Source: Ruditapes philippinarum (lineage: Eukaryota). Taken from it: a stretch of DNA of 64,000 bases. Location: contig NW_026852812.1 of the NCBI RefSeq assembly GCF_026571515.1, positions 126,256 through 190,255 on the forward strand, read 5' to 3'. How positions within the stretch are numbered: the stretch's first letter is position 1; each line of letters starts with the position of its first letter. Both the position numbers and the translations under genes were made by a program. Shown here piece by piece: positions 1,814 through 62,923 of this stretch. The notes below the pieces were generated by a model that made no database searches, was not told where the DNA came from, and saw only the letters and a program-made list of their open reading frames with translations.

Positions 1814-2689
1814 CTACTGTTTTAAAATAAATATTTACGAAAATTGTCCATGACTAAAATACTCGCAATAAAGAAACACCTTTAACCAAATGCAATTGCA
1901 CTGTTCCTGTTATTTCCGAGTATCAAAGCATTTGTTAAGGTATAAACAGTCACAAATCATCACATTAGTGAAATTACTGGTTAACTCCAAATAAATTTAA
2001 AAGGACTTAATCTGTTACTGCACTAAGGTGACAAAATATTCAAGATTTACCAAAACTGCAATTCCAAAAGATTGTTGCAAAAGATGCTGTATCATAATTA
2101 AACAAAGCATCACCATTTCTGTCTCCTAATAAGTCTTGTAAATGAAATACAACTAATGCTTTTTTTTTTCCTAAGTAAACTTTTTACTGTCAAGCAACAA
2201 ATACATATTCATGCCATAACAATTTTGTTTCCAGCTATAACTGTAGACCTTGTACCTGATATAAAGAAGGACTTCTCTTCACAATTATTATTATTCATAT
2301 TATTTGTACATAATCTATATAGATGAAGTATTTTTGCTTCTTTTTCCTTGTTGGTAATTGATATAATGATATTGAATTAGAATTTAGTCAAAATACTACT
2401 TTGTTTACATTTTGCTTTCTTTACAACACATTACTACACATTCAGCACTACTTTCTCCAGCTGTTTAACATGCTCTTAATCCATTATTAAAACATTATTA
2501 AACACATGTTTGACATTTCTAAAGAATCTAATAAATGTAGATTTCTAAGGCATAATGTGCCTTTAATGCCAGTAGAACCACCAACTTCGAGTAAGTTATA
2601 TGGATACCTTGCAGACATTAAAGAATTAAAAGTCCTTCACCCCTGATTCAAAAACAAACACATGTGATAGACATATGATTCAAAGCCAG

Positions 2690-3217
<528 letters not shown>

Positions 3218-3490
3218 TCATGGGAAAAAAAACAAATTCGTGTATTCCACTAATAACGGCCAATTTCTCAACAAAAGCTACAGCAAAGATCAATCTGCAT
3301 ATTGTCATCTACTAAGTCATTTCAAGAAGCATCAAGATCTTGTAAGTGTAACTTGTGCTTGAAAAATATCAGATACAGTTACTCAACATTTATAAAGAAA
3401 GCGGTGAAAACATCATTCCCTAGGTCTTACATTTTATTGATATTAGATTGATCATTTCTGAAATATGTTGCAAATCATCATAACTAATCA

Positions 3491-3868
<378 letters not shown>

Positions 3869-4511
3869 TTAGAAATGACTATATTTCTTTTTGTTACAAT
3901 TTCAAGGATAACTTGTACAAAACTCTACATGTTAATGCAGCAAGTTGTCTCCCTTTCTTCATAATACTATTAACAAGCCGACAGTCCTGACTGCAATACT
4001 AAAACCTGGTATAAAAAATTTATATGACAAAATAATCATCATTTTCAAAACATGAATAAGACAATAAGAAACATGAAATAAATTTTTGCACTGATACAAT
4101 TTTTTCCCTCCTACCTTTATTTCTTGTGATGATGAGTAAAGAAGGTTTCACATTTCTTATAATCATTAATGGTAACAGGTTACAGGTTAATAACCTGTCA
4201 TGCTGTCATAAAGAAGAAAAAATACATTTTGCTTTAGCTAGAGCTAGGCCCTTAGACAGCAGTAGCCTGGGACTTCCCAGTACCGTCCATAAACAAAATC
4301 AAACCAGGCCTGCAACATTTTCAATTTTACCCTTTTGAAGTCATATGCCACAGTAAAAAGGTTCTCCTGTTGTACTTGCAGGTTGTGTACGAATGCAAAA
4401 CTCCTGATTATAACCTTTTCAACTTTAACTACAGATTCATGAATTGTATCTTTTTTGAATTGTTGAAGCCCAACTTTTAATTTGGTAATGTCCATAGTTA
4501 ATTTTTTTTCA

Positions 4512-4784
<273 letters not shown>

Positions 4785-12369: not shown

Positions 12370-12750
12370 AATGATGGTATCCATAAAGAACTTTAAATAA
12401 TTTTTGATGGTATCCATAAAGAACTTTAAATAATTTTATCAGGAAAAGCACTGGAAATTCAGTCAAATACTGGTATCCATAAAGAACTTTAAATAATTTT
12501 ATCAGGAAAAGCACTGGAAATTCAGTCAAATACTGGTATCCATAAAGAACTTTAAATAATTTTATCAGGAAAAGCACTGGAAATTCAGTCAAATACTGGT
12601 ATCCATAAAGAACTTTAAATAATTTTATCAGGAAAAGCACTGGAAATTCAGTCAAATACTGGTATCCATAAAGAACTTTAAATAATTTTATCAGGAAAAG
12701 CACTGGAAATTCAGTCAAATACTGGTATCCATAAAGAATTGTCAACTTGT
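12370..12750. repeat. Tandem repeat with a 63-bp unit in about 6 copies, followed by a degenerate older array to about 13110.
   Basis: The unit is tatccataaagaactttaaataattttatcaggaaaagcactggaaattcagtcaaatactgg. ORF 12362..12745(-) is an artefact. Degenerate (c/t)ataaagaa units continue 3' of the array. Confidence 0.9.
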
Positions 12751-29640: not shown

Positions 29641-30259
29641 AGGCCTAAAAAAAAAATTGATGTGTTTCTGGTGGCGAGGTGAAAAAAGTAGGGTCGGTAG
29701 GTCGGACTTTTTTTTTTTTTTTTTTTAGTCAATCAACGATTGTAGATATGTCAGATACGGATTATATGTACTTTAAATTATATTCTATAGCATATAAAAG
29801 TACTTAAAATGTTAGACTACCAAACCTAGTCTTCAATATTTTATTTTGAAATAAATTTTACCAATGGCATGACTCGACTTTCGTTTTCATTTTTTTTATT
29901 CTTACCGAACAACTGGCTTCAATTTTAATATTATCACTCTTAACATGACCATGCACGTCCGAAAAATGTTTTGAGCTGTTTTGCCAAACTATGATCGTAT
30001 TTTTAAAGAAAATCGCCAGCAGTGACACTTCCGCTGCACCCTTGTTGTGCCGCCATATTAGCCGGTGCACGTTAATACGTAATTGGAACCCGAATCGTCG
30101 GTGCCTCACATCGTTGTCGACTCGCAATACTAAAACCCGTCTTCGGTACGGTCGGTACAGGCGCCATTTTTTTTTTGTACATCGATAAAAAACTTTGGGT
30201 CGGCGCTAAAAAATAGGGTCGGTCGGGCCACCGGAAACACAACATTTTTTTTTAGGCCT
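29641..30259. mobile_element. MITE of about 620 bp with roughly 35-bp TIRs of the form aggcctaaaaaaaaaattgatgtgtttctggtggc...gccaccggaaacacaacatttttttttaggcct.
   Basis: The TIRs are read directly from the sequence. A possible 3-bp TSD, TCA, flanks the ggcc ends, and the subterminal repeat gggtcggt(c/a)gg occurs on both sides. ORFs 29858..30127(-) and 29991..30188(+) are artefacts. Confidence 0.6.
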
Positions 30260-30967: not shown

Positions 30968-31448
30968 TATGCTTAAATCAGACTTCCTGAAAGTTGAAAA
31001 AAACTGTCAGACATTCGGTCTGACAAACCATGAAAATCTGTCGACCGAAACGAAATCTGTCAGACCGAATAAAATTGATCAAAATCAAAGAAAAACTTAT
31101 GTTTGTATTTGTAAGATACTTTTTGGTTTTAATTTTTTCGCCGTAAAAATCGGCACATTCCATACAGAGCATTTTTATCTCCTTCCTGTCATACACCAAC
31201 GATTCATGGCCCTGCTTCCATTTTTCATTAAATTTTCTCTCAGGTCTATTCTTTTCATCCTTTTATTGCTGTTCTGCGCGCTCCTCTGACGTAGATATTC
31301 GTTTTTTCCCAGGTTTGGCACCTTTAGCGACGCCATTTTGTATACATGCGGCTTGGATAAAACCGGACAGTCGGACAGATCCGAAATAAAAAATCGTCAG
31401 ACCTGATCAAAATTCATCGGACATGTCCGTCGGACCGACATATTTCGG
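30968..31448. mobile_element. MITE of about 480 bp with TIRs agacttcctgaaa.../...tttcgggaagtct and subterminal gtctgac and gtcggac repeats.
   Basis: The left end agacttcctgaaagttgaaaaaaactgtcagacattcggtctgac pairs with the right end gtcggaccgacatatttcgggaagtcttag. An adjacent 55-bp hairpin lies at 31456-31514. Confidence 0.55.
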
Positions 31449-32966
31449 GAAGTCTTAGTCCAATAGATTAGACGTTACAGGCTTGTTATAGTTTTATGTT
31501 GGTCAAGCCTGACGTCTAATAGTTATTGCTCATAAACGCGTAGCATTTTGAAAAATTAAAAAACTGTCTGTTGGCTTGCCTTTCAAGCTTTATTCAAAAG
31601 CTTATTTTCTGTTCTTTCAATTGCATGGTCTATCATTAACAAAAACTTTCAAACAATGTACTTACCAATTAAAAATAAAATAGAAATATCAGTCTATTTC
31701 GCTCATCGGCCATACTGGTTAAGTAAAGCGTTTTACAGATTGATTCCAATTTTTTGAACGGAAAAATATATTCGAACACACTGACGGTGCATGGGCAATT
31801 ATTTCGTTAAAAAAATATTCCGTTAGAAACTTCTGGACTCATTTAAACGCTTGCATTTGTATTAGCCAATCAGATTTCTCGCACTTTATGGCGGCCATTT
31901 GTATATCGGCTGTACAAGGAATTTAATTAAATGAGAGGATTTAATCATGACTTTTCGGATGTGACAGTTAAATTATTTTGTTAAAAGGTATTTATTTTTT
32001 AGTTTTGTTTATAAATAGGTCAAAATTAATGTAAATACAGGCTGTTTTAATTGTTTAAATTCATTAGATCTAAATCGATGTCTAATGTCATTTTTTTTGC
32101 TACACGATTTTGCAAAGATCTGTTAAGACCTAACGTAACATGGAAAATGAAAAATGTAAAATATCAGATTAATGAATGATGAATATGAAATAGGTTACGT
32201 ATAGGTCTTATAATTAGGACTAGGGAAGTCTGTGTTAAATGGAAGAATACAGCACTATAACTAGTCTCAAGAGGTGAAAACTACTATATTGTGACATAGA
32301 AATGACAATGCTCAGTTTGGGACCCTAATAGGGTTTGATATTTTCCTGATTATCCTGTGCTAGGATGTCATGCACTCACTTTTCACTAAATTTGGAAGGG
32401 GTTCCTAGCCTTCAGAAGAAAATGGTTGTCAATACTATAACGAAATACTTGTACAATTCTGAAAAAGGAACTTTCAATACACTTAACACATATATACATA
32501 AATTGTTAATCACAAGGATCTTATCAAAATATCTTAATTGCAATCAATTTACAAATTCACGTGCACTAAAAAGTCATAACAGCCTTTGTTTGGAATGGCA
32601 AACTACAAACAATATCTTACTGTTCTACGGTTTTACTACAACTTAAAATTAATCACCTTGTATGTCTGGATTATAATTTTGCGATGTCAATGGCGAAATA
32701 GACTTAATGGATCAGCAACACAGTATTTTCTTTGAGCTTTTCCGCGGGATTCCTCGCGCTATTCAGTTGAACTCTTACAAATGTTAGTTCTCGTTATTTC
32801 ACGAGGGATACGAGATATATATTTTTTTTATCAAACATATATTTTTTTATTTGAACTACTAAATTGTAACGTTACATTTAAGAGGAACATTATATTTCTA
32901 TGTTTATGTTATATATTTTGATAAAGAAAATAATTATAAATTAAAACTTTCATTTTGTAAACAAAT

Positions 32967-33005: not shown

Positions 33006-35039
33006 GTTAATTTTAAATTATATTAAAGATTATTGCTATATAAATAGCGAAACTTGAGCAACAATGTTTAAAATTCAGCTTTCTTCATATTTCTTGCATG
33101 CAAGAACTCATGTCTTTATTTAATTACGAGATAAACATAACAAAGTTTTCAGGGTGACAAGGAATTTGTAATGGGGGTGATCTCAAAATTACCATTGATT
33201 GTCAAAAATTGCAATCAAAATAAAATTCATTGTCGTGTAATACTGAAAAAATGTCACTATGTTTATTTGGCCCTTAATGAGATATAAGACTTTGATGATC
33301 AACAATCACACTTTAAAGATTTGAATCATCTGTGAACAGCTATTGGAAAAAAAGAAATTTTAATAGCTTTCTGTTAATACTTTTTCTAGCTTAAGGTCTT
33401 CATGGTACCCATTTATATACTATGACATGACGTGAACGCTGACGACAGACCTGTAGGGAAAGTCCACCAATAATCGTGCCAGGAATCTGACACGCTCGTA
33501 TTCATTCATTGAACATGCCATGAAGTAAAGTGAAGCATACTTTGATAAAACTAGATATATAATCTGTTGATAAGCCAAGGATGGACAAATAAATATAAAC
33601 ATATTAATAAATTACTTTTTTTAAAGATATTGAAGAAGGTGATTTATTGACTTTTGTATTCAATATAATCATATTTAAGTACTAAAATATTAAATTAATG
33701 AAAATCAAATAAATAAAAACATTATCTTGAATTATAAATATCGAAATCATGTCAATAAACTTAAAGATGTTCTAAATATAGTACACGACTCTACTCTGAT
33801 AGGTTCCCGGGAATGACGTCATACGAGGTCTCGTGTGGCACCTAAATGTCATGGCCAACTGTACTAGGCATAATTGATGTTTTACAGTTAAATAGGCAAT
33901 TTTAATGACGGTATTAATATTTTGATACTTTAAATGGCATAAATTATTATTAAAATAATTGTTTTATCGCAAAATGCACAAGAATTGATTGGGACAAGGA
34001 TATTAATTTTGCAAGTGAAAAATAAGGTTAAATCAACTTGTGTTATTCTGGTTAGGTTTTGTAATGGGTCTAATCCAAAACTAAAATGCCGCATCAGGTG
34101 AAAAACAAAAATATTGAAAAGCGGCTTATAAAGTTTTGGAAGCCAGAACTATTCTTTTTCATGCATACATCTGACATAGAATTAACTATACTTGTATAGA
34201 TGCAGGGCTTTTTTTCCTTCTATAGCAGTGGCCAGTATAGGGCTGCTTCCCCAAAGAAAATTTATTTAAAATCATGCAGTTTTACCCAAAAAATGAATTT
34301 ACATCAAGTTTTTTCTTCCCCTTTAGCAATATACCGTGTATTTTTTCCCCAAAATTAAGGGCTTGGCTGCTTCTCCAACCTGTTAAGAAAAGCCCTGAGA
34401 TGTCTTTTCCCGCCTTTTCACCCCCGCCCCCTTCCCCCATTTTAGGCCACAAATAGTGAAAAAAATGCCCTATTTAGTCACCAAAAACTTGTTTTCATTT
34501 GAAAAATTATCACTTTCGGCACCATCTGGTATCAAAAAGATACATCGAGGGGGTGCCAGAGAGGGGGGGGGGGTGATGTCTCCCTCTGTTTCAGGGTTTG
34601 AAGGGTGTCAGCAGACCCCCTTATCTCAAAGAAAATTGTGGACTTGTAAGAGGCTAAAAATGGTCTCCGGTCAACCTTAAAGTAATATATTACAAATGCT
34701 AAAAAGCCTTTGACTCTATCCCAATCCATTGAGAAGTTGCAGCACTTTGAAATCAGCTTTGATGGAATAGTCATTGCAAAATAGTGATTTTTGCAATTTT
34801 GAGATGTCCTCTCATTGCCATGGTAACAGGAAATTTAAGATTGAGTAGGCCATTACTAAGGCTATAGTCCAGTCAACATTTGAGCCACGTTTGAACAGAA
34901 TTGAAGCTTTTTTTAGCTCACCTGAGCACGAAGTGCTCAAAGGTGAGCTTTTGTCATCACTCTGCGTCCGTCGTGCGTCCTTCAAAAAATGGCGTCAAAC
35001 TTTTCAAACAACATCTCCTCCTAAACTACATGGCCAATT

Positions 35040-36280
35040 GCAACCAAACTTTACAGAAATGATCCTTAGGTGGACCCCTTTCAAAGTTGTTCAAAAATTT
35101 AAATTCCATTAAAAACTCTGGTTGCCATGGCAACCAATAAGAAAAACTTGAAAAATCTTCTTCTAAAAAACCGTAAGAGCTAGAGCTTAGATATTTGGCA
35201 TGAAACATCTTCTAATGAGTGCCTACCAAGTTTGTTCAAATCAAAGCCCTAGGGTCAAAATTGGCCCCGCCCCAGGGGGTCATTGATTTTCCCTATATGC
35301 ATATAGTAAAAACTTAAAAAATCTTCTTTTAAAGAACTCAAAGAGCTAGAGCTAAGATATTTAGCATGAAACATGTTCTAATAGGTGTCTACCAAGTTTG
35401 TTCAAATAAAAGCCCTGGGGTCAAAATTGGCTCCGCCCCGGGGGTCATTGATTTTCCTTATATGTGTATAGCAAAAACTTAAAAAAATCTTCTTTAAAAA
35501 AACCCAAATAGCTGGAGTTTAGCTATTAAGCATGAAACATCCTCTAGTGAGTGTCTACAAAAGTTTGTTCAAATCAAAGCCCTGGGGTCAAAATTGGCCC
35601 CGCCCCGGGGGTCATTGATTTTCCTTATATGACTGTGTATAGCAAAAACTTAAAAATCTTCTTTGAAAAAACCCAGATAGCTAGTGTTTAGATATAAAGC
35701 ATGAAACATCTTCTAGTGAGTGTCTACCAAGTGTGTTCAAATAAAAGCCCTAGGGTCAAAATTGGCCCCGCCCCAGGATGTCTTTGATTTTCCCTATATG
35801 CATATAGTTAAAACTTAAAAAATCTTCTTTTAAAGAACCCAAAGAGCTAGAGCTAAGATATTTAGCATGAAACATCTTCTAATGAGTGTCTACAAAGTTT
35901 GTTCAAATAAAAGCCCTAGGGTCAAAATTGGCCCTGCCCCCGGGGGACATTGATTTTCCCTATGTGCATATAGTAAAAACTTAAAAAATCTTCTTTTAAA
36001 GAACTCAAAGAGCTAGAGCTAAGATATTTAGCATGAAACATGTTCTCATGGGTGTCTACCAAGTTTGTTCAAATAAAAGCCCTGGGGTCAAAATTGGCCC
36101 CGCCCCGGGGGTCATTCATTAGCTTGATTTTTTTTGTTAAGATATATACATATTATATATATACACATATATATTTAATATTTATATATATATGCATGCA
36201 TACATATACAACCAAGTTTGTTCAAATAAAAGCCCTGGGGTTTAAACTGGCCCCGCTCCAGGGGCCTATATACAGGTGAG
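35040..36280. repeat. Tandem satellite of about 195 bp with roughly 6 units, in MAEA intron 1. It is preceded by a hairpin plus the gcgtccgtcgtgcgtcc leader at 34915-34990.
   Basis: The unit is ..gtttgttcaaat(c/a)aaagccctagggtcaaaattggccccgccccagggggtcattgattttccctatatgcatatagtaaaaacttaaaaaatcttcttttaaagaactcaaagagctagagctaagatatttagcatgaaacat.., seen repeatedly. The AT-rich block 36120-36220 interrupts the array. Confidence 0.85.
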
Positions 36281-37701
36281 CGACTTTGGGCCATCATGGC
36301 CCTCTTGTTTATAGTTTCATACAATCATAGCAATTTGAACTTGTAACAAGAGGCTTTTCAATGAAAACAGCCATTTTTTCACAAAATGCTCATGAAGAAA
36401 TGGGTTAAAAGTTAAAATTATGCTAATGAGAACCCTGAAGTTAATCTTTAATATAACACTGTTTCACTTTAATATTATTTCAAAGTACAAAGAAATTTTC
36501 CCTTTTCTTGAACAGATTTTTTTTTCAGAAATAGAAAGAAAAAGAATTGAAAAGGGAATCCATGGGGAATTTCAACCTAAATTTGGCCCTTAAAATCACT
36601 GGCAGTGGGTTATTAATGACTCTAGCAGCATTATCTAATAACTCATCTGTCCGTGACTCTTTCCTCAGAATTATGAAACAAGAATTTAGCGTAACAACAA
36701 TATTGTAGCAGTGCATAAATACATGTACATGTATTGTAATTTTCCCTGTTAACTGTGTGTGTTATTCACTTTACACTACCTCTGCTACCTGTTGGAAACC
36801 AAAAGTGGTTAAATACATGTAGCTTTAGCCACCAGAATGCTATTCTGCACTTCCATATTAAGCATGGTATAGACTGTTCCGGATTCAAAGCTTGGCAAAT
36901 CCATTACACAAATTCAGTAGGTAAAGGGTTAAAGTAACCACCATTTCCCCATGTGATTTCGTTTTCTAACTTTTTGAAGGCAATATCATCTTCTATACTT
37001 TAGTTTTCAATTGATAAACACAACAACTACAATATCCATGGCCACGCAAACATGTAGATATAGAGTTTGATGCATTTCAGAAAACTTTTAAAAATCTTTT
37101 TAAACACTGAAAGCTATATTTAAATCATAATTGAGAGGAAGCTTTGACATCATACACGTAAAATCTCTACTAGGGATTTATTATCCTGCAAGGTTGCATT
37201 TTCATGCAATTTTTCAAAACCATGTTTGACACAAGAACATTTACTGATACCTACTCCACTATTTTTTCTTCATTTGTTATGGTAAACAAAGAAGAAGTTG
37301 CCAAAATGTAAAAAAAAAAAAGCAATACAGATAAAGAAGATGTAAATTATTCTCAGAAATAGATGAAAATGTCAACACTATTTCATGTTGCATTTTGGAG
37401 GCGGGTTACGATTATCTAGTGATTAGTGAGTTAAAATGTTTTCATACTAAGCTTTGAAAATTTTTGTTTACTAATTCTGACAGGTACATTTAGAATATTT
37501 ACAATCGTACATGTAAGTGAGAAATTATTCAGCTTGCTTTAAATAGCTTTATGACAGATTGATGATTCGATTATTCAGCTGATATTCAGGGAAGTTTGCA
37601 TGGGAGTTTTCCTTCACTGCTGTAGCTTGAATGTCACCATACAGTGGTAAAACTTGTACATTAAACTTTTTAAAAAAATCCACAAGTTTATTATATTTTA
37701 G

Positions 37702-38155: not shown

Positions 38156-38985
38156 CTAAAACCCAATCAAATAAACAGACAAATTTGTTATGCTTTGAAT
38201 TTGAAAATTTTCATTGTTAATTTCCCGAATTTTCATGTCAAAACAATAAAATTCAGCACAGCCCTGAGTGTAGTCAGATTTCACAAAAGGTTTAAAACCA
38301 GACTGTCCTGGTTGTATACACTTGGCCTGTAATTTTTACCACTACTAAAATTAATACTGCCTTTTAAGTTTATTCACCTTTTAGTAAAAGTAAATTCACT
38401 GTTTTTTATGGCCCCTCTTGGGGTTGGGGGTGATGTAGATTTGCCCATGCCAGTCTGTCAAGCTGTATATCTTTAAACTGATAATACATTGGAATAAAGG
38501 GCATCTGTGTCCTATGGAGACAAATTTAGTTACTTGATTCAAATCTAGAAAATGGTACATTTTATATCATTGTAGAGAACAAGTTACAAATATTTCTGGA
38601 AAAGACTATAAAAATATTTAATTATGAAAATAAGTGTCCTGAATTATTTGCCTGAATTACTGTATAAACCAGGCATTAACCCTAATCTGCAAGTGCCCCA
38701 CATGATAAGCAGTCTGACCTGGCCTGTTGGCTGACCAATTTCAAATTTTCGTCTTGATATCAAGATAATTAAAAATGGATGGTTTATAAATTGAAGTTGG
38801 AAGTTCATGTACTTAATTCAGCAGGTCAGACTTTAGTTTAAGATCAACCTCCACAACAAACATGGTGATTATGCACTCAAGACTTGTTATTGTTATGCTT
38901 TATTAATAGAAAATAAAAATGAATTAAATATTACATGTGTATATATTTAAAATTTAAATGCAGTTAAATTTTTATCTGTGTTTAG

Positions 38986-39189
38986 GCTGATGAAAGTGTT
39001 AATGAAGAGCTTGAGGCTGCTAGAATGATAAAGAGGCGTGTTGACCATCTGAAGGAGGCGGAGCATCTTCATGAACATACACGCCCTCTTTGGCAGAAGA
39101 AACGTTTGGATAGGATGTTAGTTGAATATTTCTTAAGAGCCGGCTATTACAATACAGCATTGAAATTAGCCCAGCATTCAGAGATAGAG
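38986..39189 (+). CDS. MAEA: MAEA exon 3, covering the LisH and CTLH region.
   Basis: Translation ADESVNEELEAARMIKRRVDHLKEAEHLHEHTRPLWQKKRLDRMLVEYFLRAGYYNTALKLAQHSEIE matches human [25 protein letters not shown]...[33 protein letters not shown]. The acceptor is tgtgtttag, the donor is gtacag, and the frame is checked against ORF 39025..39207. Confidence 0.9.
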
Positions 39190-40739
39190 GTACAGTATAA
39201 TAGCTAAAATACAATGTACATGTATGCGTGGAGAGTTTATGAATTAAGAGTTTTATTTTATCTAAATTTAACTCCTGTTGATTGTGGTTATCACACTTAC
39301 ATACATGTACCTAAATACCTGACAGAACTGAAATAAAATAAAATAAGGTATCATTAATCATTAATTTAATGCTTTTTGAATATTCAAATTAAGTGATGAA
39401 CTGACATATAATATGATATTGTTTACTTTTTTGTGTTTTGAGTTCTGGATGAGACATTTAAATGGCAATATAGTTAGTCATTTTAGTGAAGAGGTTCTTT
39501 GTCATTCATCTGTGATATACCTTGAATCCTTTTTGGACCAGATTTAGCATGCTTTATGAATTTGAAATGGTCCATGATTAATTTCAGAGATTTGTATTTC
39601 AAAATGCTTTGAAGCTAGTATCCAGTTAGTATAATAGGGTGTGATCAATCTGACTAGGTATTGCAGTGATTTTTTTTTTGGCAATTTTCAAAACAACCAT
39701 GGTCCTTCTTAAGGGATGGTCTTTCTGAAGGGAAAAATAAACATGTAACGCGATAAATCAGAAAACGGAGGAATAACCTGAAATCAAATTCAAACAACTG
39801 AGAATGGAATTTACCCACACATTTTTTTAAAATTTTCAATTCAATTTAACATGCATGGTACATAGCAGAGGCTATTTATAGGGACAGCTTTCAATAAATT
39901 AGAATTATCAATTTGCTGATATAAATCAGCTGCTGTTAAGTCATGGTTCTGGTGAAGAATGTGCAGAGGGTATTTCGGGGGAAAATATAAAAAAGATTTG
40001 GCAGGTGGAGGGGGGTATACCTATTTTGGGCTAGGGGAAGCAGCTTTATTTGACTTTAAAATATAAGAAATAAAAATCACTGTATAATAGGCTTGTCAAA
40101 CTCACAATATCTGCTAGTGTTTGGAAAAGTTAAATATTTATTTGGAGAAATTGCAACAGATTAATGTTAATACAAAATCTGATGAATTATTTTATCAAGT
40201 TTTTACCTTTTTTTGTCTGCTGTTATTTTAATGGAAATCTGTCAGAACAAAAAAGTTCATGAACAAATATTAGTTGTAATGGTAAGACATTCTTCTCTGC
40301 AGACAAAGATTCTGTTCAAGTGTTAAGGACAGCAATTTTGTCATATTTTACATTAACCCCATATGTTTCTTGCTGCAGTAGTGAAATATTTGATTTCTAA
40401 TTTTCTTCTCTTCAGAATGAATTTTTTTTATCCTTGCCATGCATTGTTTATTCAAGCTATCCATTATAAGACATGTTTTAGTACTTATTTACATGTAAAT
40501 CTTTATGTAATGTCTGATCAATTTTTTTTTATCATGTCATTTCGCAATCTTCCCAATTTCCCTATGTCTGAAGCTTTTTTCTGGACTTGTATATTCGCCC
40601 ACTGTCTAGTGGAGAGGAATACTAGGACAAATATAGCTTGTTTAGAAACAAACATGAATTTGTTGACACAAAACAACTAGAGTGTTCTACTTATAATACA
40701 TATGATTTTTATTCTTAGATAGACAGTCTTCTCTTATTT

Positions 40740-41470
40740 CTTAACAAGAAAATTGGCAGGATTGTTCCTTTGGTGAAGGGCTTCCAAAGTTGTTCAAAGA
40801 ATTTGATTCCATGCAGAAATCAGGTTGCCATGGCAACCAAAAGGAATAATAAGAAAAAATTAAAAAATCTTCTTGTAAAGACCAACACGGCCTAGAGCTT
40901 AGATATTTTGCATAAGGCATTGTCTTGTAGACCTCTTCCAAGAATGTTCAAATTATAGCTCTGGGGTCAAAATTGGCCCCGGCCCAGGGGGTCACTGATT
41001 TTCACTATGTACATGTAGTAAAAACTTAGAATATCTTCTTGTCTGAAAGTACAAGGCTTAGAACTTTGATATTTGGTATATGATGACATCTATAGGTCCT
41101 CTACCAAAGTTGCTCAAATTTTGCCACTAGTGTCAAAGTTGGCCTGTCGGGGGGGGGGAGAAGGGTGGGGGGCTGGGAGGTCATTGATTTTCCATATATG
41201 TATATAGTAAAATCTTTAAAAATCTTCTCTGAATTGACAAAGGCTAGAGTCTAAATATTTTGCATAAGGTATTGTCTTGTAGACCTCTACCAAGATTGTT
41301 CAAATTATAGCCCTGGGGTCAAAATTGACCCTGCCTGGGGTCATTGATTTTCACTATGTGCATATAGTAAAAATTTAAAATATCTTCTTGTCTGAAGGTT
41401 CAAGGCTTAGAGTTTTGATATTTGGTATATGATATCATCCATAGGTCCTCTACCAAATTTTACCTCTAGT
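40740..41470. repeat. Related satellite array of about 200 bp with roughly 3.5 units, in MAEA intron 3.
   Basis: It has the same leader (ccaaagttgttcaaagaatttgattccat...ggttgccatggcaacc) and the same core (ggggtcaaaattggcccc.g.ccagggggtcactgattttcactat) as the 35040 array. ORFs 40741..40941(-) and 35026..35208(-) translate to similar pseudo-proteins. Confidence 0.8.
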
Positions 41471-41600
41471 GTCAAAATCTTGTTTGCACTTGTGATTATT
41501 ATTACATATTTTGCTCTTGTGGTCATTATTATTACATCTTTTGCTCTTGTGATCATTATTATTACATTTTTTTTTATCTTGTATACATAATCATAATTTT
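41470..41600. repeat. Tandem repeat of about 33 bp, cttgtg(a/g)t(t/c)attattattacat.ttttgct, in about 3.5 copies.
   Basis: Seen directly in the sequence. Confidence 0.8.
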
Positions 41601-41714
41601 TGCTTGTATGGTTATGGTTACATGTTTGCTTCATTTTATACAAAAGCAGCTCATTTTAAATCATTATCAATGTATGATGTCACATTGAGATGTATGTATA
41701 TTAATTTGTTACAG

Positions 41715-41837
41715 GACCTAACAAACATAGACTTATTTATGACATCAAAGGCCATTGAAGAATCATTAATCAATCATGAGACAGCCCCCTGTTTGAATTG
41801 GTGCTATGAAAATAAATCTAAACTTAGAAAATTGAAG
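41715..41837 (+). CDS. MAEA: MAEA exon 4.
   Basis: Translation [41 protein letters not shown] matches human [41 protein letters not shown]. The acceptor is ttgttacag, the donor is gtaattc, and the frame comes from ORF 41604..41873. Confidence 0.88.
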
Positions 41838-42203
41838 GTAATTCACTTTATGAATCTTTGCATGGTCATTTAGATTACGGTTGAGTAAAATCTACATTAT
41901 AGTTGAATATATTTAATATTTACAAGCATATAAGTTTATTGGTGTCAATGTTTTATAATGAATTCTCAGAAATAGTTTTTTATGGTGAAAAATTCTAATT
42001 TTGTAGATTTCTTTATAAATGATTTCAGTCATCAATTATGATGAATTGTTTATTGATATGATTCAGGGTTGATAAACAAAGCGTTTAGGTGAACAAAATT
42101 AAAACTTCATTTAGTTATATTGTAAAGTACTATGATATTTTGATATAAAAAGACACACAATTATGAAGAAGAAGAAAAAAAAATGTTTTTGTTTTGTTTT
42201 GAA

Positions 42204-42281
42204 GAGTACTCTGGAGTTTAAGCTACGACAACAAGAATTTATTGAAATGATTCGCAGTAACTGCCGTCTTGATGCAGTCAG
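42204..42281 (+). CDS. MAEA: MAEA exon 5, phase 0 to 2.
   Basis: Translation STLEFKLRQQEFIEMIRSNCRLDAV(R) matches human [26 protein letters not shown]. The acceptor is ttgttttgaag and the donor is AG|gtaagc. Coordinates are uncertain by 1 nt. Confidence 0.82.
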
Positions 42282-43712
42282 GTAAGCAATGCATTTTGTG
42301 AATGAGAAAATAATCAAAGTCTAGGTCTCGGCTTAAATTGCTACCTTTTATTTCACTTTTGTAGAAATTGCCATGTTCCAACATATTTTATGCAATTTTG
42401 CCGACTTTGGTTGGTGCCTGTCCCAAATCATCAACAAGAACAATTTCTTAAAATTATCGACAAAACTGCTGTATTTATGCAGTCATATTATGATAAACAC
42501 TATTGTTTGTTTTATTTAAAATTTGTATTGGTCTCAATTCAAGATTGTTATTTTTTAGATCAGCTGGATTGAAACATTTCATATTCAATTTCTGACATAT
42601 TAATCCCTATCCCTTATCTCGCTGAATTTGTGTAATGGATTTGCCCTGCTTTGAATTCAGAATAGTCCATTCGAATTAAAGGGATTTCAGTAGCAAAATA
42701 AACGAAATATGAGATACCGGCAGTATAGAGTCTTGTCAGACTATCCTGGGGGCAAAGTTCAATCACTTCTAGTACTTGTTGTTGTCTATGCTAAATGGGA
42801 GTCCATCCGTCATTTCAGGCACTGTAAGTACGGAACCAACAGGTTAAGGTTTAAAGGTCCTAAATCCTAAAAGCATAAATTTGATAATCTTACAAAGATC
42901 AACTGGGGCACTTGAAACTAATAAATATGAAAAGAAATATTCCCAGAAATGTATTGAAATTTAATATTTAGTTTGATTCTTAGCCCAAATTTAATTAACA
43001 GCATTTGAAGGCTTCATTTTTAGGTCCATTTGCACATAAAAATAATTATTAGTCAGGAAGAACGGAGGAGTTAATGATCTGAAATTTGTCAGGTTTTTGG
43101 TATAGACCTACATTAAATACATGTCTAAATCTTGAAGAAAAAAATATTTCCAGTCATGTCATGTGCAGACAAGAGGAGGGAGTGCCTTTAAAGCCATCTT
43201 ATAATCTAACTGATTTATGTACATGCATGTACATTTATTTGCCTGAACTGGTGAAAAGGCTGAAATTGAGTGTCTCTCTATTGAAAATAGATAGCACAAA
43301 AATAGGAACTTTCTTGCAAATTACAAATTTAGTAATATCAACTAATTGCAAAATAAAAATGCAAGAAATTGGAGTTCTGGTTTCAGATAGCATTTCCTTG
43401 TTGCTATGATGAATTGAAATAAATTACAATGTAGTAATGTCAGAGATATATATATATATATATTATATACCTTATTGGAGGGGCTATAGCTTTTATTGGA
43501 ACACACACAAAGATATATTGGTCTTTGCAGAAGTAGAAAGTTTTATTTGTTGTTGAAGTCTGAAGAAATATGACCATATTTGTCTATTTTCAGTAATGCA
43601 AGAAATATTACTGCAGTGTTTTTGTGTAAATATAAAGATACAAACTAAATATAAAGATACATGGTAACAAGGCGTCATTCGTTTTTTACGTTACATTTTG
43701 TCTCTATTTTAG

Positions 43713-43824
43713 ACATGCAAGGAAATATTTTAGCAATCAAGTTGAAGATCAACACCTGGGTGAGATTCAGAGAGTTATGGGATTGCTGGCATTTTCATCA
43801 GACACACTCATTTCACCATATAAG
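43713..43824 (+). CDS. MAEA: MAEA exon 6, phase 2 to 0.
   Basis: Translation (R)[37 protein letters not shown] matches human [37 protein letters not shown]. The acceptor is ctattttag and the donor is gtacac. Confidence 0.9.
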
Positions 43825-43840
43825 GTACACAATATCTTAC

Positions 43841-43990
43841 CTCTCTGGCGTGGGTTCGATCCCCTGGAGATGCTTTGGTAGTTTAGCACGGAGGAAGGTA
43901 GTCTAGTACTGGTGTAACTCTCCAGGAACGATGGTTAGGAAACTACCCGCCTATATGACTGAAATACTGTTGGGAAAAGGCGTAAAATGA
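43841..43990 (+). repeat. tRNA-like SINE fragment (tctggcgtgggttcgatcccctgg...) immediately 3' of the MAEA exon 6 donor.
   Basis: It has a T-arm-like GGTTCGATCC motif, no complete cloverleaf and no acceptor stem. Confidence 0.4.
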
Positions 43991-44426
43991 AACAAACAAA
44001 CAAATAATATCTTGTTTTAACATCTACCTATAACTCAGGGCTTTTAAATTTGATAAAAAAGGCCATTTCCTACATAACATAATTATGTAAGACATTATAC
44101 GTGTGTAAGAACCTTTGAGAAAGGAAGAGAAAGGAAGAGAAATTACCAAAAGTAACCAGTTGGCCTTTAACATAATGTATGAAATTTAACACTGTATTAA
44201 AGTCATAATGACACTCCTGGTCATTCATAAACTGTTTGGTTGGACATGAAGTGGTTATACAAAAAAAAACCTTTTTAAAAAATTTGAATGACATTGAAAA
44301 TGTCACATGATATTGACCGAAACATTTAAAAAAAAATCACTAGATTTTGGCCAGGAGTGTTTGTGTTTTACAAAGACATTCTTTTGTGTTCCTCATATAG
44401 TTTTGTGTATATTATTTTTCCTGCAG

Positions 44427-44560
44427 GAGTTATTGGACCAAGAGAGATGGATGGAGCTTGTACAACAATTCAGATATGAGAATTTCAAGTTACATCAATT
44501 AAATAATGCATCTGTCTTCACTGTCACTCTACAAGCTGGTTTGTCAGCACTTAAAACACC
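44427..44560 (+). CDS. MAEA: MAEA exon 7, phase 0 to 2.
   Basis: Translation [45 protein letters not shown] matches human [45 protein letters not shown]. The acceptor is ttttcctgcag, the donor is CC|gtatcc, and the frame comes from ORF 44307..44720. Confidence 0.92.
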
Positions 44561-44794
44561 GTATCCTTTATTCATACAAGTCATGGTAGTTTTGTTTAAA
44601 TGCATTTGTTCTTGCTTGATTGTGAAGAAAAAGTTTGAATGTTACCCGAACTACTTTCAAGTCTGCTTCTTTGAACTAATCACTACTGGTGTCATATGTG
44701 GAATCAAGGTTATGACTTAAGGAGAGTTCAAACACACGATCTGTGTGTTGAGAACACTGTTTACTCTCTGTCTTTTCTAGAACTTTATTGTCAG

Positions 44795-45535
44795 TAAATC
44801 AAAGTGTCAGAGCAAATATAATATTGTCAGTGCAAGAATTGTATTGTCAGTGCAAGAATTGTATTGTCAGTGCAAGTATGGACCATTCCGGTTTTTCGTA
44901 GCGGAACATTTAGCCACACCTTTTCCATTCATTGCTAGGTCAACTGCTCACAAACAGTATCACAAACAAAACCATGTGTTCTTTTGTGCAAACCAGGTCA
45001 ACCAGTGACTATGTATTATCTCAGTGTAGTAATTGGATATCAAGTTAGCCAATTTCTATAAATCTGTAAACACTGGAAAGGTCCATTGTATTGTTAGTGC
45101 AATAATTGTATTGACAGTGAAAGAATTGTATTGACAGTGAAAGAATTGTATTGTCAGTGCAATAATTGTATTGTCAGTGCAATAATTGTATTGACAGTGA
45201 AAGAATTGTATTGACAGTGAAAGAATTGTATTGACAGTGCAAGATCTGTAATGTCAGTGAAAGAATTGTATTGTCAGTGCAAAGAATTGTGAAAGAATTG
45301 TATTGTCAGTGCAAGATCTGTAATGTCAGTGAAAGAATTGTATTGTCAGTGCAAGAGCTGTAATGTCAGTGAAAGAATTGTATTGTCAGTGCAAGATCTG
45401 TAATGTCAGTGAAAGAATTGTATTGTCAGTGCAAGATCTGTAATGTCAGTGAAAGAATTGTATTGTCAGTGCAAGAATCGTAATGTCAGTGTAAGTATTG
45501 TATTGTCAGTGAAAGAATCGTACTATCAAAAGTAT
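44795..45535. repeat. Minisatellite with a 20-bp unit (attgtattgtcagtgcaaga and variants) in about 36 copies. It lies in MAEA intron 7 and ends about 60 bp before the exon 8 acceptor.
   Basis: Direct visual periodicity. Variant units include gaaagaattgtattgacagt and gcaagatctgtaatgtcagt. Confidence 0.9.
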
Positions 45536-45593
45536 GTTTGAGTTTATGCAAGCTTTTTAATAGCTTATTAAATTCCTTTACATCAATCATCAG

Positions 45594-45789
45594 ATACTGT
45601 TACAAAACTGAGGGTAACAGTAAGAATGCTGAATGTCCGGTTTGTAGCCGGAACCTAAACAAACTAGGTCAGCACCTGCCATACGCTCACTGTGCTAATT
45701 CCAAATTGATATGTCATATCAGCGGTCAAGCTTTGAATGAGCATAACCCACCTATGATGTTACCAAACGGATATGTATACGGTTGTAAT
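45594..45789 (+). CDS. MAEA: MAEA exon 8, covering the RING-Gid-type zinc-finger region, phase 2 to 0.
   Basis: Translation [65 protein letters not shown] matches human [65 protein letters not shown]. The acceptor is caatcatcag, the donor is gtaagtg, and the frame comes from ORF 45538..45882. Confidence 0.93.
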
Positions 45790-46596
45790 GTAAGTGTAAA
45801 CATTATTGTAATTCTTAAAATTCAACAAAATGGTATAATATTAAAGTTGCACGCCTTCAGCAAATACGGTATATTTCGATGAAAATCAAACCTAAGAAAA
45901 ATGTAGTAAAGTTTTTAGGAAAGGTATAAAGATTAAAAATTCTAGCAATACTTTACATGTTATGTGCGATTAACGACCGATTTTTCAGTATTCATAACTA
46001 TATTAATTACGCACTAAGGGCTATTTTTGCATATTGTGACCTCTTTATTGTAATTAACATGGGTTGTAAGTGCAATTGATGATGTGAAAGTTGTATTCTT
46101 TTGTAACTTCACAATATAATACTGTTAAATACATTTTCAAATTTTCATGAAATAAGCATGAATCTGGAGGCGTGCTGCTTTAAAGAAACAAAGTATAAAA
46201 ACATTCACATTTTGGCTCTATAATCTAAATGTCTCCTATTTATGTTGAGTTATGCATTATTTTAGAAGATATATCTTTTCAGGCATACAATGTCCATCTT
46301 TGTTTACTGTATGTAGCATTATTGATTACTACAGTAGTTAAACACTACATTGTACATAATTAAAAAAAAAACCAATCTATTTTATTGTAATAGATGTATA
46401 TAATCTATAATACAAACATGAACAAAGTATGATGTGAGAGCCTTTCAATTTAAACCGCAAAATAAAACGGAAGCATAATAGCTGAACTGTATTTTATTCA
46501 CTATTTTATAAGTTATCCTGTGCACTTAATATAGTTATGATTTTGATTTAATATTTCTATGATTATTTCAATCTTATTTTTGTTTGTAAATTACAG

Positions 46597-55151: not shown

Positions 55152-55208
55152 GTAAGAACTTAAAGAATTTTTTTTGTTTCTGTTTTTTTTTCAATATTAT
55201 AATGTTAA

Positions 55209-55640
55209 CCCATTATTGCATGAGCATTTAGTGAAAAATGGCTGTTTTCATTGAAAAGCCTCCTGTTTAGTTTAAATGGCTATGAAACTATAAAAGATGC
55301 TTCACTATTCATCAAACTTAGCACAACTGTTGACTGGACCATGCTAAGGCATGCTCAAGAGCTTAAATTTCCTGTTGCCATGGCAACGGGGGGACATATC
55401 AATATTGCCAAAAATTACTATTTTGCGTTTCAATTTCAAAGTGCTACAAACTTCTCAATGGATTGAGATAGAGAGTCAAAGGCTTCTCAAGGCTGGTTAC
55501 ATGTTACCTTCTGATTGACCTAAGGCCAATTTTGGCCTCTCACAAGTCCAAAATCTTCTTGATGATGAGGGGGTCTGCTGCCCCTTTCAAACCCCTAAGC
55601 AGAGGGGCACATCCCCCCTCTGGCACCCCTTAGTAATGGG
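55209..55640. mobile_element. piggyBac-like MITE of about 430 bp with TTAA target-site duplications.
   Basis: TTAA at 55205-55208 and 55641-55644 flanks the TIRs cccattattgc...gtaatggg, which have the CCC...GGG termini typical of piggyBac. It sits in the intron after SMYD5 exon 2 and contains the palindrome gttgccatggcaac. Confidence 0.65.
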
Positions 55641-59528: not shown

Positions 59529-60715
59529 GTTTATTTAATTAAGCTTGATTGAGGAGAAAGCGCTTAAAGCTTATATGAATATAGCTCAGTGTTGAGCCTG
59601 TTTCCTGAAAGAAGCAAGATCTGGCCCCAACACTACCACCATTTTTATATGCCCGAAAAATTTTCGGGCATATTATGTTATACCCCCTGGCGTCCGTCCG
59701 TCTGTCCGTACAAATCAGAGCTACATTATGGGGTTTGGTCTATTGTTCTCATAACAATAGATGTCTTTGATGAAATTCATTCCGTTTCTCTTGTGCGTTT
59801 TTTTTCTGCATTGTGGGGTTAAAAAGAACAAAAGAAATAACAAAAGAAAACCCCATAATGTAGCTCTGGTAAGAACGTCTGTCCGTCTGTTAGCAATTTG
59901 GTTTCCGGAGCATAACTTAAGTTCCATTTGGCCCACAATATTCAAACTTCATAGGGTGATTGTCCATATTGGGTAGAAGACCCCTATTGATTTTGGGGTC
60001 ACAAGGTCAAAGGTCAAGGTCACTGACCTTAAAACTGAAAACAGTTTCCGGAGCATAACTTAAGTCCCATTTGGCCCACAGTGTTCAAACTTCATTGGAT
60101 GATTGTCCATATTGGGTAGAAGACCCCTATTGATTTTGGGGTCACAAGGTCTAGGTCACTATGACCTTAAAACTGAAAACAGTTTCCGGAGCATAACTTA
60201 AGTCCCATTTCAAGATTTGGCCCACAATGTTCAAACTTCATTGGATGATTGTCCATATTGGGTAGAAGACCCCTATTGATTTTGGGGTCACAAGGTCAAA
60301 GGTCAAGGTCACTATTACCTTAAAACTGGAAACAGTTTCCGGAGCATAACTTAAGTTCCATTTGGCCCACTGTGTTCAAACTTCATAGGATGATTGTCTA
60401 TATTGGGCAGAAGACCCCTCTTTACTAAAAAAAAAATCACTTTCGGGCATATAATGCTCCGCCTAGTGGTGCTCTTGTTTTATTTAGTTCTGTCTTGAAT
60501 CTCTGGATTTTCTTTGTTCAGTTTGCATTACTGTGCTGATTTCTGACCAATCAAATTTCTAAATCCGGAGATCTTGAGTTAAAGCTTAGAGAATTTCTTA
60601 ATAACCTCAGATCCTGGTATCATATGAGGAAACATGACCATGGCCCCAGTAGGGCTTGAGCCCATCGTCCCTGGGTTTAAAAGCAGACTCTTAAGGCACT
60701 ATTCCAACACTATAA
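59529..60715 (-). mobile_element. SINE family B copy split by a nested insertion of a TIR/hairpin element that carries a roughly 120-bp tandem array.
   Basis: The SINE tail aagcttatatgaatatagctcagtgttgagcctgtttcctgaaagaagcaagatctggcccca at 59561-59635 and the SINE head region ccatggccccagtagggcttgagcccatcgtccctgggtttaaaagc at 60640-60700 are separated by an element bounded by cactaccaccatttttatatgcccgaaaa / tttcgggcatataatgctccgcctagtggtg. Confidence 0.5.
59636..60478. mobile_element. TIR/hairpin-bounded non-autonomous element with an internal ~120-bp satellite (about 3.5 units, 60000-60420) and the leader motif ccgtccgtctgtccgt.
   Basis: The terminal palindrome is atatgcccgaaaaattttcgggcatat. 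There is a nested inverted repeat cagagctacattatgggg / ccccataatgtagctctg. ORFs 59589..59976 are artefacts. Confidence 0.5.
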
Positions 60716-61763: not shown

Positions 61764-62138
61764 GTGACAAGAAAAAAGCTCTTGTTTCAATATTCATATA
61801 GTATAACTTCTGAAAATAAACACCTGGGACTAGCCAAAAAGTTTGATTTTTATTTTTTTAAGTTTTCGGAATTTAGAAGCTTGGTATTATCTGAACAAGT
61901 AGAAACATGAAACTTCAGCTGTTTTAGACAAGATGGAAATTATATGATGCTGATAAAATTAACAAAATGATTGAATTTGAGGATTCTTAAAAAGTTTATT
62001 AAACAAACTTATAATCCTTAAATTCTAATTTCAGAAGTTTCCGGAATTCAGAAGTTACACTGTATACTAGTAAGCTGTATAATAAAAATTTATAAACAAA
62101 GACATAGCTGTTATAAAAATAGCATGTCTGTTTTTATG

Positions 62139-62862
62139 CTCCCCGAAGGGTGAGCATATAGTCGCCGCTTTGTCCGTCCCTCCGTCTATCAGCTTTTCTT
62201 GTCCGGGACATAACTTTGAAACAACAAGAGGTATCAACATGAAACTTTGTAGGTAGATAGATCTCATTGAGTAGGTGTGCAGGGTACAAGAACCATAACT
62301 CTGCCTTGCCTAATTTTTGAATTATTGCCTTTTGTTTATTTTTACACTTTGAAATTTGTCCGGGACATAACTCTAAAACTATTAGAGATATCAGCATGAA
62401 ACTTTGTAGGTAGATAGATCTCATTGAGTAGGTTTTCAATGCACAAGAACCGTAACTCTGCCGTGCCTAATTTTTGAAATGCCCTTTGTTTATTTTTACA
62501 CTTTGTTCATTTTGACACTTTGAACTTTGTCCACGACAGTAAGAGATATCAACATGAAATTTGTAGGCAGATAGATCTCATTGGATAGAACTGCAATGCT
62601 AAAGAACCTAAACACAGCCTTGTCTAATTTTGGAGTTATTGCCCTTTGTTCATTTTTACACTTTGAATTTTACCTGGGACATAACTCTGAAACTATAAGA
62701 GATATCATCACAAAACTTTATAGATAGATAGATCTCATTAAATAGAAGTGCAGTGCAAAAAACCATAACTCTGCCTTGCCTAATTTTGGAGTTTTTTGCC
62801 CTTTGTTCATTTTTTTTTTTATACTTTACTGTGTCCAAAACCTTTTTGGGGAGCATCACCCT
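62139..62862. mobile_element. TIR-bounded element with an internal ~120-bp tandem array (about 6 units) and the leader tgtccgtccctccgtc, inside a SMYD5 intron.
   Basis: The ends are atgctccccgaagggtgagcat / ccttttt-ggggagcatc. The unit is ccctttgtt(t/c)atttttacactttgaa.ttgtccgggacataactctaaaactat.agagatatca.catgaaactttgtaggtagatagatctcattgagtag. ORFs 62067..62439(-) are artefacts. Confidence 0.55.
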
Positions 62863-62923
62863 GTTCAACAAGTTCTTGTTTAACATAAGTGCAGTACTAA
62901 TTTAACACAAATTTCATACACAG

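Follow-up and report, generated by a model that had tools for sequence, protein, structure and literature searches.

The window examined here, a stretch of 64,000 nucleotides of the Ruditapes philippinarum genome (assembly GCF_026571515.1, contig NW_026852812.1, forward strand, positions 126,256 to 190,255), contains four short tandem arrays, and the question that this locus raises is whether they are satellites that expanded where they stand or repeats that were carried in by mobile elements. Our analysis indicates that they are very probably the central tandem repeats of non-autonomous elements of the Helentron type (HINEs, Helentron-associated interspersed elements), of the DINE-1, pearl, DTC84 and Cg_HINE kind. 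An earlier interpretation of the same DNA, made from the letters alone and called here the sequence-only reading, had proposed that the arrays are the cargo of non-autonomous Helitron- or Helentron-like elements, and the HINE substructures, an empty site and conserved flanks bear this out. We refer to the four elements, in their order along the window, as A, B, C and D; A, C and D are complete and B is truncated (Table 1). Complementary subterminal inverted repeats (subTIRs) at the 5' and 3' ends, a 5' hairpin, a GTCY microsatellite and central repeats of fixed orientation were identified in A, C and D. Two further HINE features, insertion into T-rich DNA without target duplication and dispersed copies with conserved termini, were found through the A family. 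Elements of this class are familiar from earlier work on oysters, clams and flies, and those of the window are new but ordinary members of it.

Tandem Repeats Finder (TRF) delimited the arrays of A, C and D, and a direct-repeat analysis that of B, at roughly the places where the sequence-only reading had put them. Its monomer sizes of about 195 and 120 bp were not recovered, as the measured units are 166, 143 and 157 bp long in A, C and D, respectively. TRF makes no call on the array of B (40749-41470), in which the direct repeats revealed about 3.7 units of two alternating subtypes, spaced by 166, 186 and 163 bp, every second unit being 88-90% alike. By BLAST this array is about 70% identical to that of A, the match starting at position 35046 in the leader of A. 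Long homogeneous head-to-tail arrays independent of their flanks, which characterize classical satellite DNA, were not found among the window arrays; these are 3.6 to about 6.5 units long and are bounded by a conserved left flank (LF) and a conserved right flank (RF).

The complete elements A, C and D show the same order of parts: a T-run, a hairpin-forming 5' inverted repeat, a GTCY-type microsatellite, a variable leader, the tandem repeats, a 3' inverted repeat, a short palindrome and the terminal CTTGTT. In all three, the 5' inverted repeat pairs twice, once with a short inverted repeat nearby and once with the subterminal repeat at the far end. The short 3' palindrome is clear in A only and weaker in C and D. 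In element A, AGCTCACCTGAGCAC comes first, immediately behind TTTTTTT, and is separated from GTGCTCAAAGGTGAGCT by a loop of 3 nt; the preceding T-run may reflect a target preference or be part of the element itself. Its inverted-repeat pair consists of AGCTCACCTG and CAGGTGAGC (9-10 nt), and its microsatellite segment is shorter than the corresponding ones of related metagenome copies, which are variable. Element C starts after TTTTT with ATATGCCCGAAAA-A-TTTTCGGGCATAT; its subTIR pair (59645-59658 and 60441-60454) is 14 nt long and 100% complementary, TTTCGGGCATAT recurs 26 nt before the end and the terminus is GCTCTTGTT. Element D, also preceded by TTTTT, starts with ATGCTCCCCGAAGGGTGAGCAT; its subTIR pair (62136-62147 and 62845-62856) is 12 nt long and 92% complementary, TTTGGGGAGCAT lies 25 nt before the end and a terminal palindrome, AACAAGTTCTTGTT, was located at 62867-62880. 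The three 5' hairpins were found within a few bases of the palindromes noted in the sequence-only reading, and their stability was assessed by folding them as single-stranded DNA against shuffled sequence, as was done for the 3' palindromes; all three hairpins are far more stable than the shuffled versions (z scores in Table 1).

The motif GTCCGTC occurs six times in the window, always on the plus strand, against 0.56 occurrences expected by chance, and all but one belong to the left flanks of A, C (59692, 59696 and 59881) and D (62172). It starts 15-19 nt past each of the three hairpins. The claim that all four arrays are preceded by a hairpin and this motif therefore stands for three of them, but neither feature lies upstream of the array placed near 40740, that of B. 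The sixth occurrence, at 31425, was seen by sequence reading in a CpG-rich stretch with no obvious hairpin or array adjoining, and is outside any element of the HINE kind. Within the microsatellite of C there is a segment of about 171 bp (59707-59877) whose 30-nt inverted ends are 87% complementary and which is bordered by TCTGTC left and right; this is perhaps a nested element of very small size with terminal inverted repeats, or else a microsatellite duplicated around a palindromic spacer.

How A arrived can be read from the DNA around it. The element is nested in a copy of a miniature inverted-repeat transposable element (MITE), and an intact copy of the same MITE is present farther along the window. 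By BLAST, the sequences that flank A (34570-34915 and 36325-36418) align reversed, and in the right order, to this one continuous MITE (55209-55640), which makes A one 1.4-kb insertion that entered an older copy of the MITE. At the paralogous empty site GAAACTATA is joined to AAAGATGCTTCA, whereas the filled site reads GAAACTATA, the element and AAAAAAAGCTTCA. The insertion took place in a T-run, as read on the element strand, and no target duplication accompanied it. With no more than about 75% identity between the MITE copies, the insertion point can be fixed only to within 1-2 T residues.

Copies elsewhere were sought in metagenomes by means of one 21-mer from inside the A monomer, GGTCAAAATTGGCCCCGCCCC, the loci being picked by the monomer alone. 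Of 23 loci obtained, 22 are invertebrate DNA with related arrays at 70-88% identity. We scored 26 arrays, of which 20 had an assessable 5' flank and 21 an assessable 3' flank. A full LF was present in 11 of the 20, four more had an LF in which a part of the hairpin is deleted and one was cut within the microsatellite; the RF was present in 15 of the 21, and seven copies are complete A-family elements with both ends. LF, leader, monomers and RF follow in the same order and on the same strand in every copy. The aligned 5' ends are sharp: unrelated DNA is followed by a T-run, by AGCTCACCTGAGCAC-AAA-GTGCTCA-GGTGAGCT-TTTGTGA and then by a variable (GTCC/GTCG)n, the boundary falling between TTTTT and AGCTCACCTG. 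Equally sharp are the 3' ends, which read TCAGGTGAGCGAC-NNN-GGGCCC-NNN-GGGCCC-TCTTGTT with unrelated DNA beyond; here the element stops after GGGCCCTCTTGTT, and the terminal CTTGTT is invariant in the 15 aligned A-family copies. The DNA outside both boundaries is unrelated between copies. Conservation of the flanks around other copies of the monomers had been put forward in the sequence-only reading as the way to check it, and this check, run on the copies picked by monomer, gave conserved left and right flanks, sharp boundaries and unrelated DNA outside.

These observations are decisive against the idea that the arrays are classical satellites or minisatellites expanded in place, with the hairpins and GTCCGTC motifs present by chance or local bias. 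Some local duplication or turnover within the arrays must indeed occur, because neighbouring units in the TRF arrays are 13-23% different, and array B has no recognisable termini. However, the empty site shows that the whole unit of A came as one insertion, sharp-edged LF and RF are conserved at many unlinked loci that were selected by their monomers only, and the excess of GTCCGTC is confined to one strand and concentrated in the left flanks of A, C and D. For A, expansion in place is refuted, and the unrelated flanks exclude that the metagenome loci are segmental duplicates of a single locus; for the window as a whole we regard this explanation as practically untenable. The sequence-only reading was thus right in denying that the arrays arose in situ.

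The metagenome copies also bear on the hairpins. Across 12 copies, 96.6% of the cells of the 5' hairpin are paired, with two double compensatory changes, and in one copy the inner stem is different yet complementary. The 3' stem, GGGCC(C/A)-N3-(T/G)GGCCC, is 93% paired in 15 copies, with A-T instead of a C-G pair in element A of the window and in one metagenome copy (L015). Given such low counts of compensatory changes in related sequences, this is supporting evidence, not proof, that selection would maintain the hairpin stems of the A family through compensatory changes. Flanks and repeats were found in other combinations as well. In one locus (L024), LF and RF like those of D (ATGCTCCACGAAAAATTTCGGGGGAGCAT ... 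GGGGAGCAT ... ACTCTTGTT) enclose unrelated repeats of about 220 bp, and in another (L003) a different hairpin LF and a (TG)n microsatellite precede repeats of the A type. When viral contigs were scanned with the two ends of the A family, the 5' hairpin and the 3' terminus, there were 0 matches, and hence no sign of a viral vector.

The same ends allow two other transposon types to be weighed. In the first, the elements would be cut-and-paste MITEs with terminal inverted repeats (TIRs) that duplicate an AA/TT dinucleotide target, their internal repeats being incidental. Inverted repeats of 9-14 nt do connect both ends, the T residues on the two sides of an element can be read as a TT duplication, and pearl and DTC84 were first interpreted as MITEs, an AA duplication having been proposed for such elements (PMC3879986). 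The ends are, however, asymmetric: the 5' repeat is terminal, whereas on the 3' side 25-36 nt separate the repeat from the terminus, and the palindrome, clear in A only, and the conserved CTTGTT come after it. The number of flanking T residues is variable, the 3' flanks of several copies start with A or C, no flank is repeated and no clear duplication was seen at the empty site of A or at other copies. Moreover, identical architectures have been tied to autonomous Helentrons, with no target modification (Thomas et al., PMC4067079). The TIR elements that the sequence-only reading had offered as an alternative are thus not favoured by the internal position of the 3' repeat and the lack of a duplication, and we consider such an origin improbable.

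The second type is that of the canonical Helitrons, whose non-autonomous elements bear in Repbase the label 'Helitron-N_CGi' for the oyster elements. They belong to the same general class, with no target duplication, a 3' hairpin and rolling-circle relatives, and the flanks of Cg_HINE match Repbase 'Helitron-N' entries (PMC7492417). Yet the 5' ends found here are AGCTC, ATATG and ATGCT instead of TC, the 3' ends are CTTGTT instead of CTRR, and the target was a T-run instead of an A^T site. The elements here also have subterminal inverted repeats, which are absent from canonical Helitrons (PMC4067079). A canonical Helitron identity is therefore very improbable, and the Helentron type remains our preferred assignment.

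Several points weigh against this assignment. The 3' palindromes of C and D fold weakly (z = -2.5 and -0.6), AACAAGTTCTTGTT of D doing no better than shuffled sequence. At the empty site of A, a TT target and a T^A target are indistinguishable. Only one second copy of D (L024) was seen, and of C no second full copy. Concerning an autonomous partner, the window contains no transposon-type open reading frame (ORF) of at least 110 amino acids in a survey that stopped short of a full six-frame Pfam scan, and the search of related copies for Rep or helicase that the sequence-only reading had suggested returned neither among the ORFs of at least 150 amino acids in the fetched loci, about 150 kb of related DNA. 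As no autonomous Helentron with these termini was found, the link to Helentrons rests on structure; for Cg_HINE, too, the autonomous partner has not been found in the literature (PMC7492417).

The anatomy was observed in A, C and D, and insertion without duplication, dispersed copies and compensated hairpins in the A family; the further steps of HINE mobility would follow Helitron/Helentron biology. An autonomous Helentron would supply Rep (an HUH nuclease), a helicase and an endonuclease and mobilise the elements in trans, by rolling-circle transposition through single-stranded DNA. The terminal hairpins and inverted repeats would serve as signals of recognition and termination. The copy number of the arrays would then drift locally through slippage or unequal exchange.

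Element B lies in an intron of MAEA, between the exons at 38982-39117 and 41715-41840. No hairpin, GTCCGTC, LF, RF or 3' end was identified at its locus (40749-41470), and B is a decayed, end-truncated copy related to A. Directly past the array there is a minisatellite of 30-bp units (41483-41572) that contain TTTGCTCTTGTG, similar to the 3' end CTCTTGTT of HINEs; it may be what is left of the right end, or the likeness may be due to chance.

The leaders of A and B had been described as identical, but they are only homologous, with about 71% identity by BLAST (mean column identity 73% in an alignment of five leaders), and they are identical solely over the 16-nt GGTTGCCATGGCAACC, which recurs in B at 40823-40838. 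No invariant run in the five leaders is longer than GGTTGCCATGGCAACC, the next one being 9 nt long, and 48% of the columns are invariant (permutation P about 5e-4). The first 50 nt of the leader recur between monomers in many metagenome copies (e.g. Ga0224511), giving a unit of about 320 bp, and a CAAAGTTGTTCAAA box is common to leader and monomers. The A/B leader is therefore a diverged repeat unit and not a separate feature.

The palindrome GTTGCCATGGCAAC was located at 35121, 40824 and 55374 in the window, against 0.02 occurrences expected, and a degenerate copy lies at 34815-34828. Elsewhere it was found in L003 (944-957), L006 (491-504), L012 (129-142 and 693-706) and L019 (544-557), and no fetched copy in which this leader part is preserved lacks the block, across several metagenomes. 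This 14-mer is the classic palindromic X-box consensus of RFX (PMC3414849, PMC4168999). Its third position in the window falls in the MITE, as the sequence-only reading had pointed out; the presence of the palindrome there is confirmed, but the connection drawn from it is not. Nothing beyond the 14-mer could be aligned between the leader and the MITE at 55209, so the palindrome is no tie between the arrays and the MITE, and we rejected a relationship of the two. The MITE copies themselves have CCC...GGG ends and TTAA flanks, and the family is consistent with a piggyBac-type origin. We think it unlikely, going by sequence, that the two transposon families carry and spread functional RFX sites, belonging to the cilia programme, for their own benefit or for host regulation. 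Still, an X-box perfectly conserved in one subfamily and in an unrelated MITE is the one thread that perhaps leads somewhere new.

Table 1. Features of the window. Positions are those of the whole stretch; z scores compare each fold with shuffled sequence.
Feature	Position	Strand	Basis
Element A, complete, 1395 bp, nested in MITE copy 1	34915..36309	+	Ends from paralogous empty site and sharp termini of metagenome copies
T-run abutting the 5' end of A	34908..34914	+	Sequence reading
A, 5' subTIR AGCTCACCTGAGCAC and complementary inverted repeat, hairpin	34915..34949	+	DNA fold -14.6 kcal/mol, z = -6.1
A, GTCY/CGTC microsatellite-like segment	34964..34981	+	GTCCGTC at 34966
A, leader, ending in GGTTGCCATGGCAACC at 35120-35135	34982..35141	+	Homologous to B, L003, L006 and L012
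A, array called by TRF	35142-36120	+	TRF, 166 bp x 5.9
A, central repeats, 166 bp x ~6.5, AT-rich break at 36142-36193	35142..36264	+	TRF and sequence reading
A, 3' subTIR CAGGTGAGCGAC, complementary to 5' end	36273..36284	+	Minus-strand match 34913-34924; kept in 15 copies
A, 3' palindrome GGGCCATCATGGCCC, then terminal TCTTGTT	36288..36309	+	Fold z = -2.3
Element B, truncated relative of A: leader and ~3.7 repeat units	40749..41470	+	BLAST, direct repeats
Element C, complete, 833 bp	59647..60479	+	Hairpin 59647-59673, z = -5.8
C, array	59901-60419	+	TRF, 143 bp x 3.6
Element D, complete, 745 bp	62136..62880	+	Hairpin 62136-62157, z = -4.6
D, array	62205-62814	+	TRF, 157 bp x 3.9
MITE copy 1, left part (window order), truncated at far end, host of A	34551..34914	-	BLAST to 55291-55618, 74%
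MITE copy 1, right part, then TTAA at 36405-36408	36310..36404	-	BLAST to 55196-55285, 85%
MITE copy 2, intact, 432 bp, TTAA on both sides, GTTGCCATGGCAAC at 55374-55387	55209..55640	+	
CtBP exon	3488-3838	-	
MAEA exon series	38982-45795	+	Exon positions from metagenome locus L001

The window is animal DNA with a G+C content of about 33%. Elements A, B, C and D are all on the plus strand, which is also the strand of MAEA, four elements being too few to speak of an orientation bias. A search with the MAEA exons reached 83% identity at best, and one with the CtBP exon gave protein matches of 100%, all of them on metagenome contigs. One such contig (L026, JGI 3300049158) matches window positions 2650-4520, with 98% identity in the CtBP exon and 89-91% in the adjoining introns; given this intron identity, it comes from a close relative of the source species of the window and not from the same genome. 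At 12372-12738 there is a minisatellite of 5.3 copies of a 63-bp unit, with no GTCCGTC nearby, whose 100% copy identity suggests a recent expansion. Two stretches, 30166-30258 and 31300-31450, are richer in G+C and CpG and contain GGGTCGGTCGG motifs, with counterparts in metagenome loci L022 (around 6282) and L009 (around 11900); the second includes the GTCCGTC at 31425, a 78-bp piece is about 80% identical to L022, and the stretches probably represent another repeat family.

In practice, the arrays should be masked and labelled as non-autonomous elements of the Helentron type, with three families here, and not as satellites; they have little importance beyond annotation. What the example shows is a nested insertion with its paralogous empty site, and related flanks around unrelated repeats.

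The closest known system is that of the Cg_HINE elements of Crassostrea gigas, eleven of which have been described genome-wide, with repeats of 140-180 bp in 3-5 copies on average and GTCY, GTCC or GTCK microsatellites (PMC7492417). Group 1 of these, with repeats of the Cg170/HindIII type, shows the same module order as A, C and D (Vojvoda Zeljko et al. 2020, PMC7492417): a 5' subTIR, an inverted repeat 1-12 nt away, a microsatellite, a spacer of 10-500 bp, the repeats and a 3' subTIR, the flanks being compared here by their described layout. Further likenesses are insertion into T-rich DNA without target duplication, a constant orientation of the repeats and related flanks around unrelated repeats. 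Other transposons are frequently hit, as by A here, and Cg_HINE elements are often found inside them (PMC7492417). The systems differ in species, and in that each cluster of Cg_HINE repeats is reported to keep one specific pair of flanks whereas L003 combines A-like repeats with a different LF. At the level of the repeats, the whole length of the A and B1 monomers can be aligned, reversed, to CgiSat01a/b and CgiSat09, consensus sequences of the Cg170 family of C. gigas; identity is 61-65% (62-65% for A) and the scores are 59-79, where shuffled sequence averaged about 30 and reached maxima of 35-56. A reversal of monomers to fit Cg170 was likewise made in the Cg_HINE paper (Table S3, PMC7492417), in which accepted Cg170 subfamilies are about 66-70% identical to each other, above the values for A and B1. 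The A monomers thus appear to be distant relatives of the Cg170 family of C. gigas HINEs. Together with the element type, they indicate a bivalve other than C. gigas as the source of the window. The C and D monomers are unrelated to the Cg170 or HindIII (BIV160-like) consensus sequences. The C. gigas satellitome contains no sequence words of the A, C or D monomers, no matching words were present in the supplements of PMC7492417, and a full-text literature search for the terminal sequences of the elements returned nothing relevant.

The defining architecture is also that of the DINE-1/HINE elements of Drosophila, mites and mosquitoes (Thomas et al. 2014, PMC4067079). In DINE-1 and its kin the subTIRs are about 13 bp long, the 5' one having an inverted repeat 3-22 bp away; a microsatellite, central repeats and a 3' stem-loop complete the plan, and insertion occurs at TT or T-rich targets, which are left unmodified, with a variable number of terminal T residues (PMC4067079). 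The elements here follow this plan throughout, save for the weak 3' palindromes of C and D. Their sequences are not similar to those of DINE-1 and its kin, and autonomous Helentrons, of which none was found here, have been identified in Drosophila and mites. Among bivalves, pearl of Crassostrea virginica, DTC84 of Donax trunculus and MgE of Mytilus (PMC3879986) differ in sequence, in having the microsatellite at the other end of the array (by the opposite strand convention) and in the AA duplication proposed for them; as in the elements here, a flank L and a flank R accompany an ACGG/GTCY microsatellite and one to six core repeats, each about 160 bp long. They can also be compared at the unit junctions, which in DTC84 carry the palindrome TTGTCCGGACAA, the D monomers here beginning with TTGTCCGGGACATAACT. 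Indeed, C, D and the D-like element of L024 (4230-5450, minus strand), whose repeats are otherwise unrelated, have units that all start with a T(G/T)TCCGG-N(1-2)-CATAACT box that recalls this junction palindrome of the DTC84 core repeats. The window is a clean textbook case of the published model in which derivatives of Helentrons seed satellite-like repeats in bivalve genomes.

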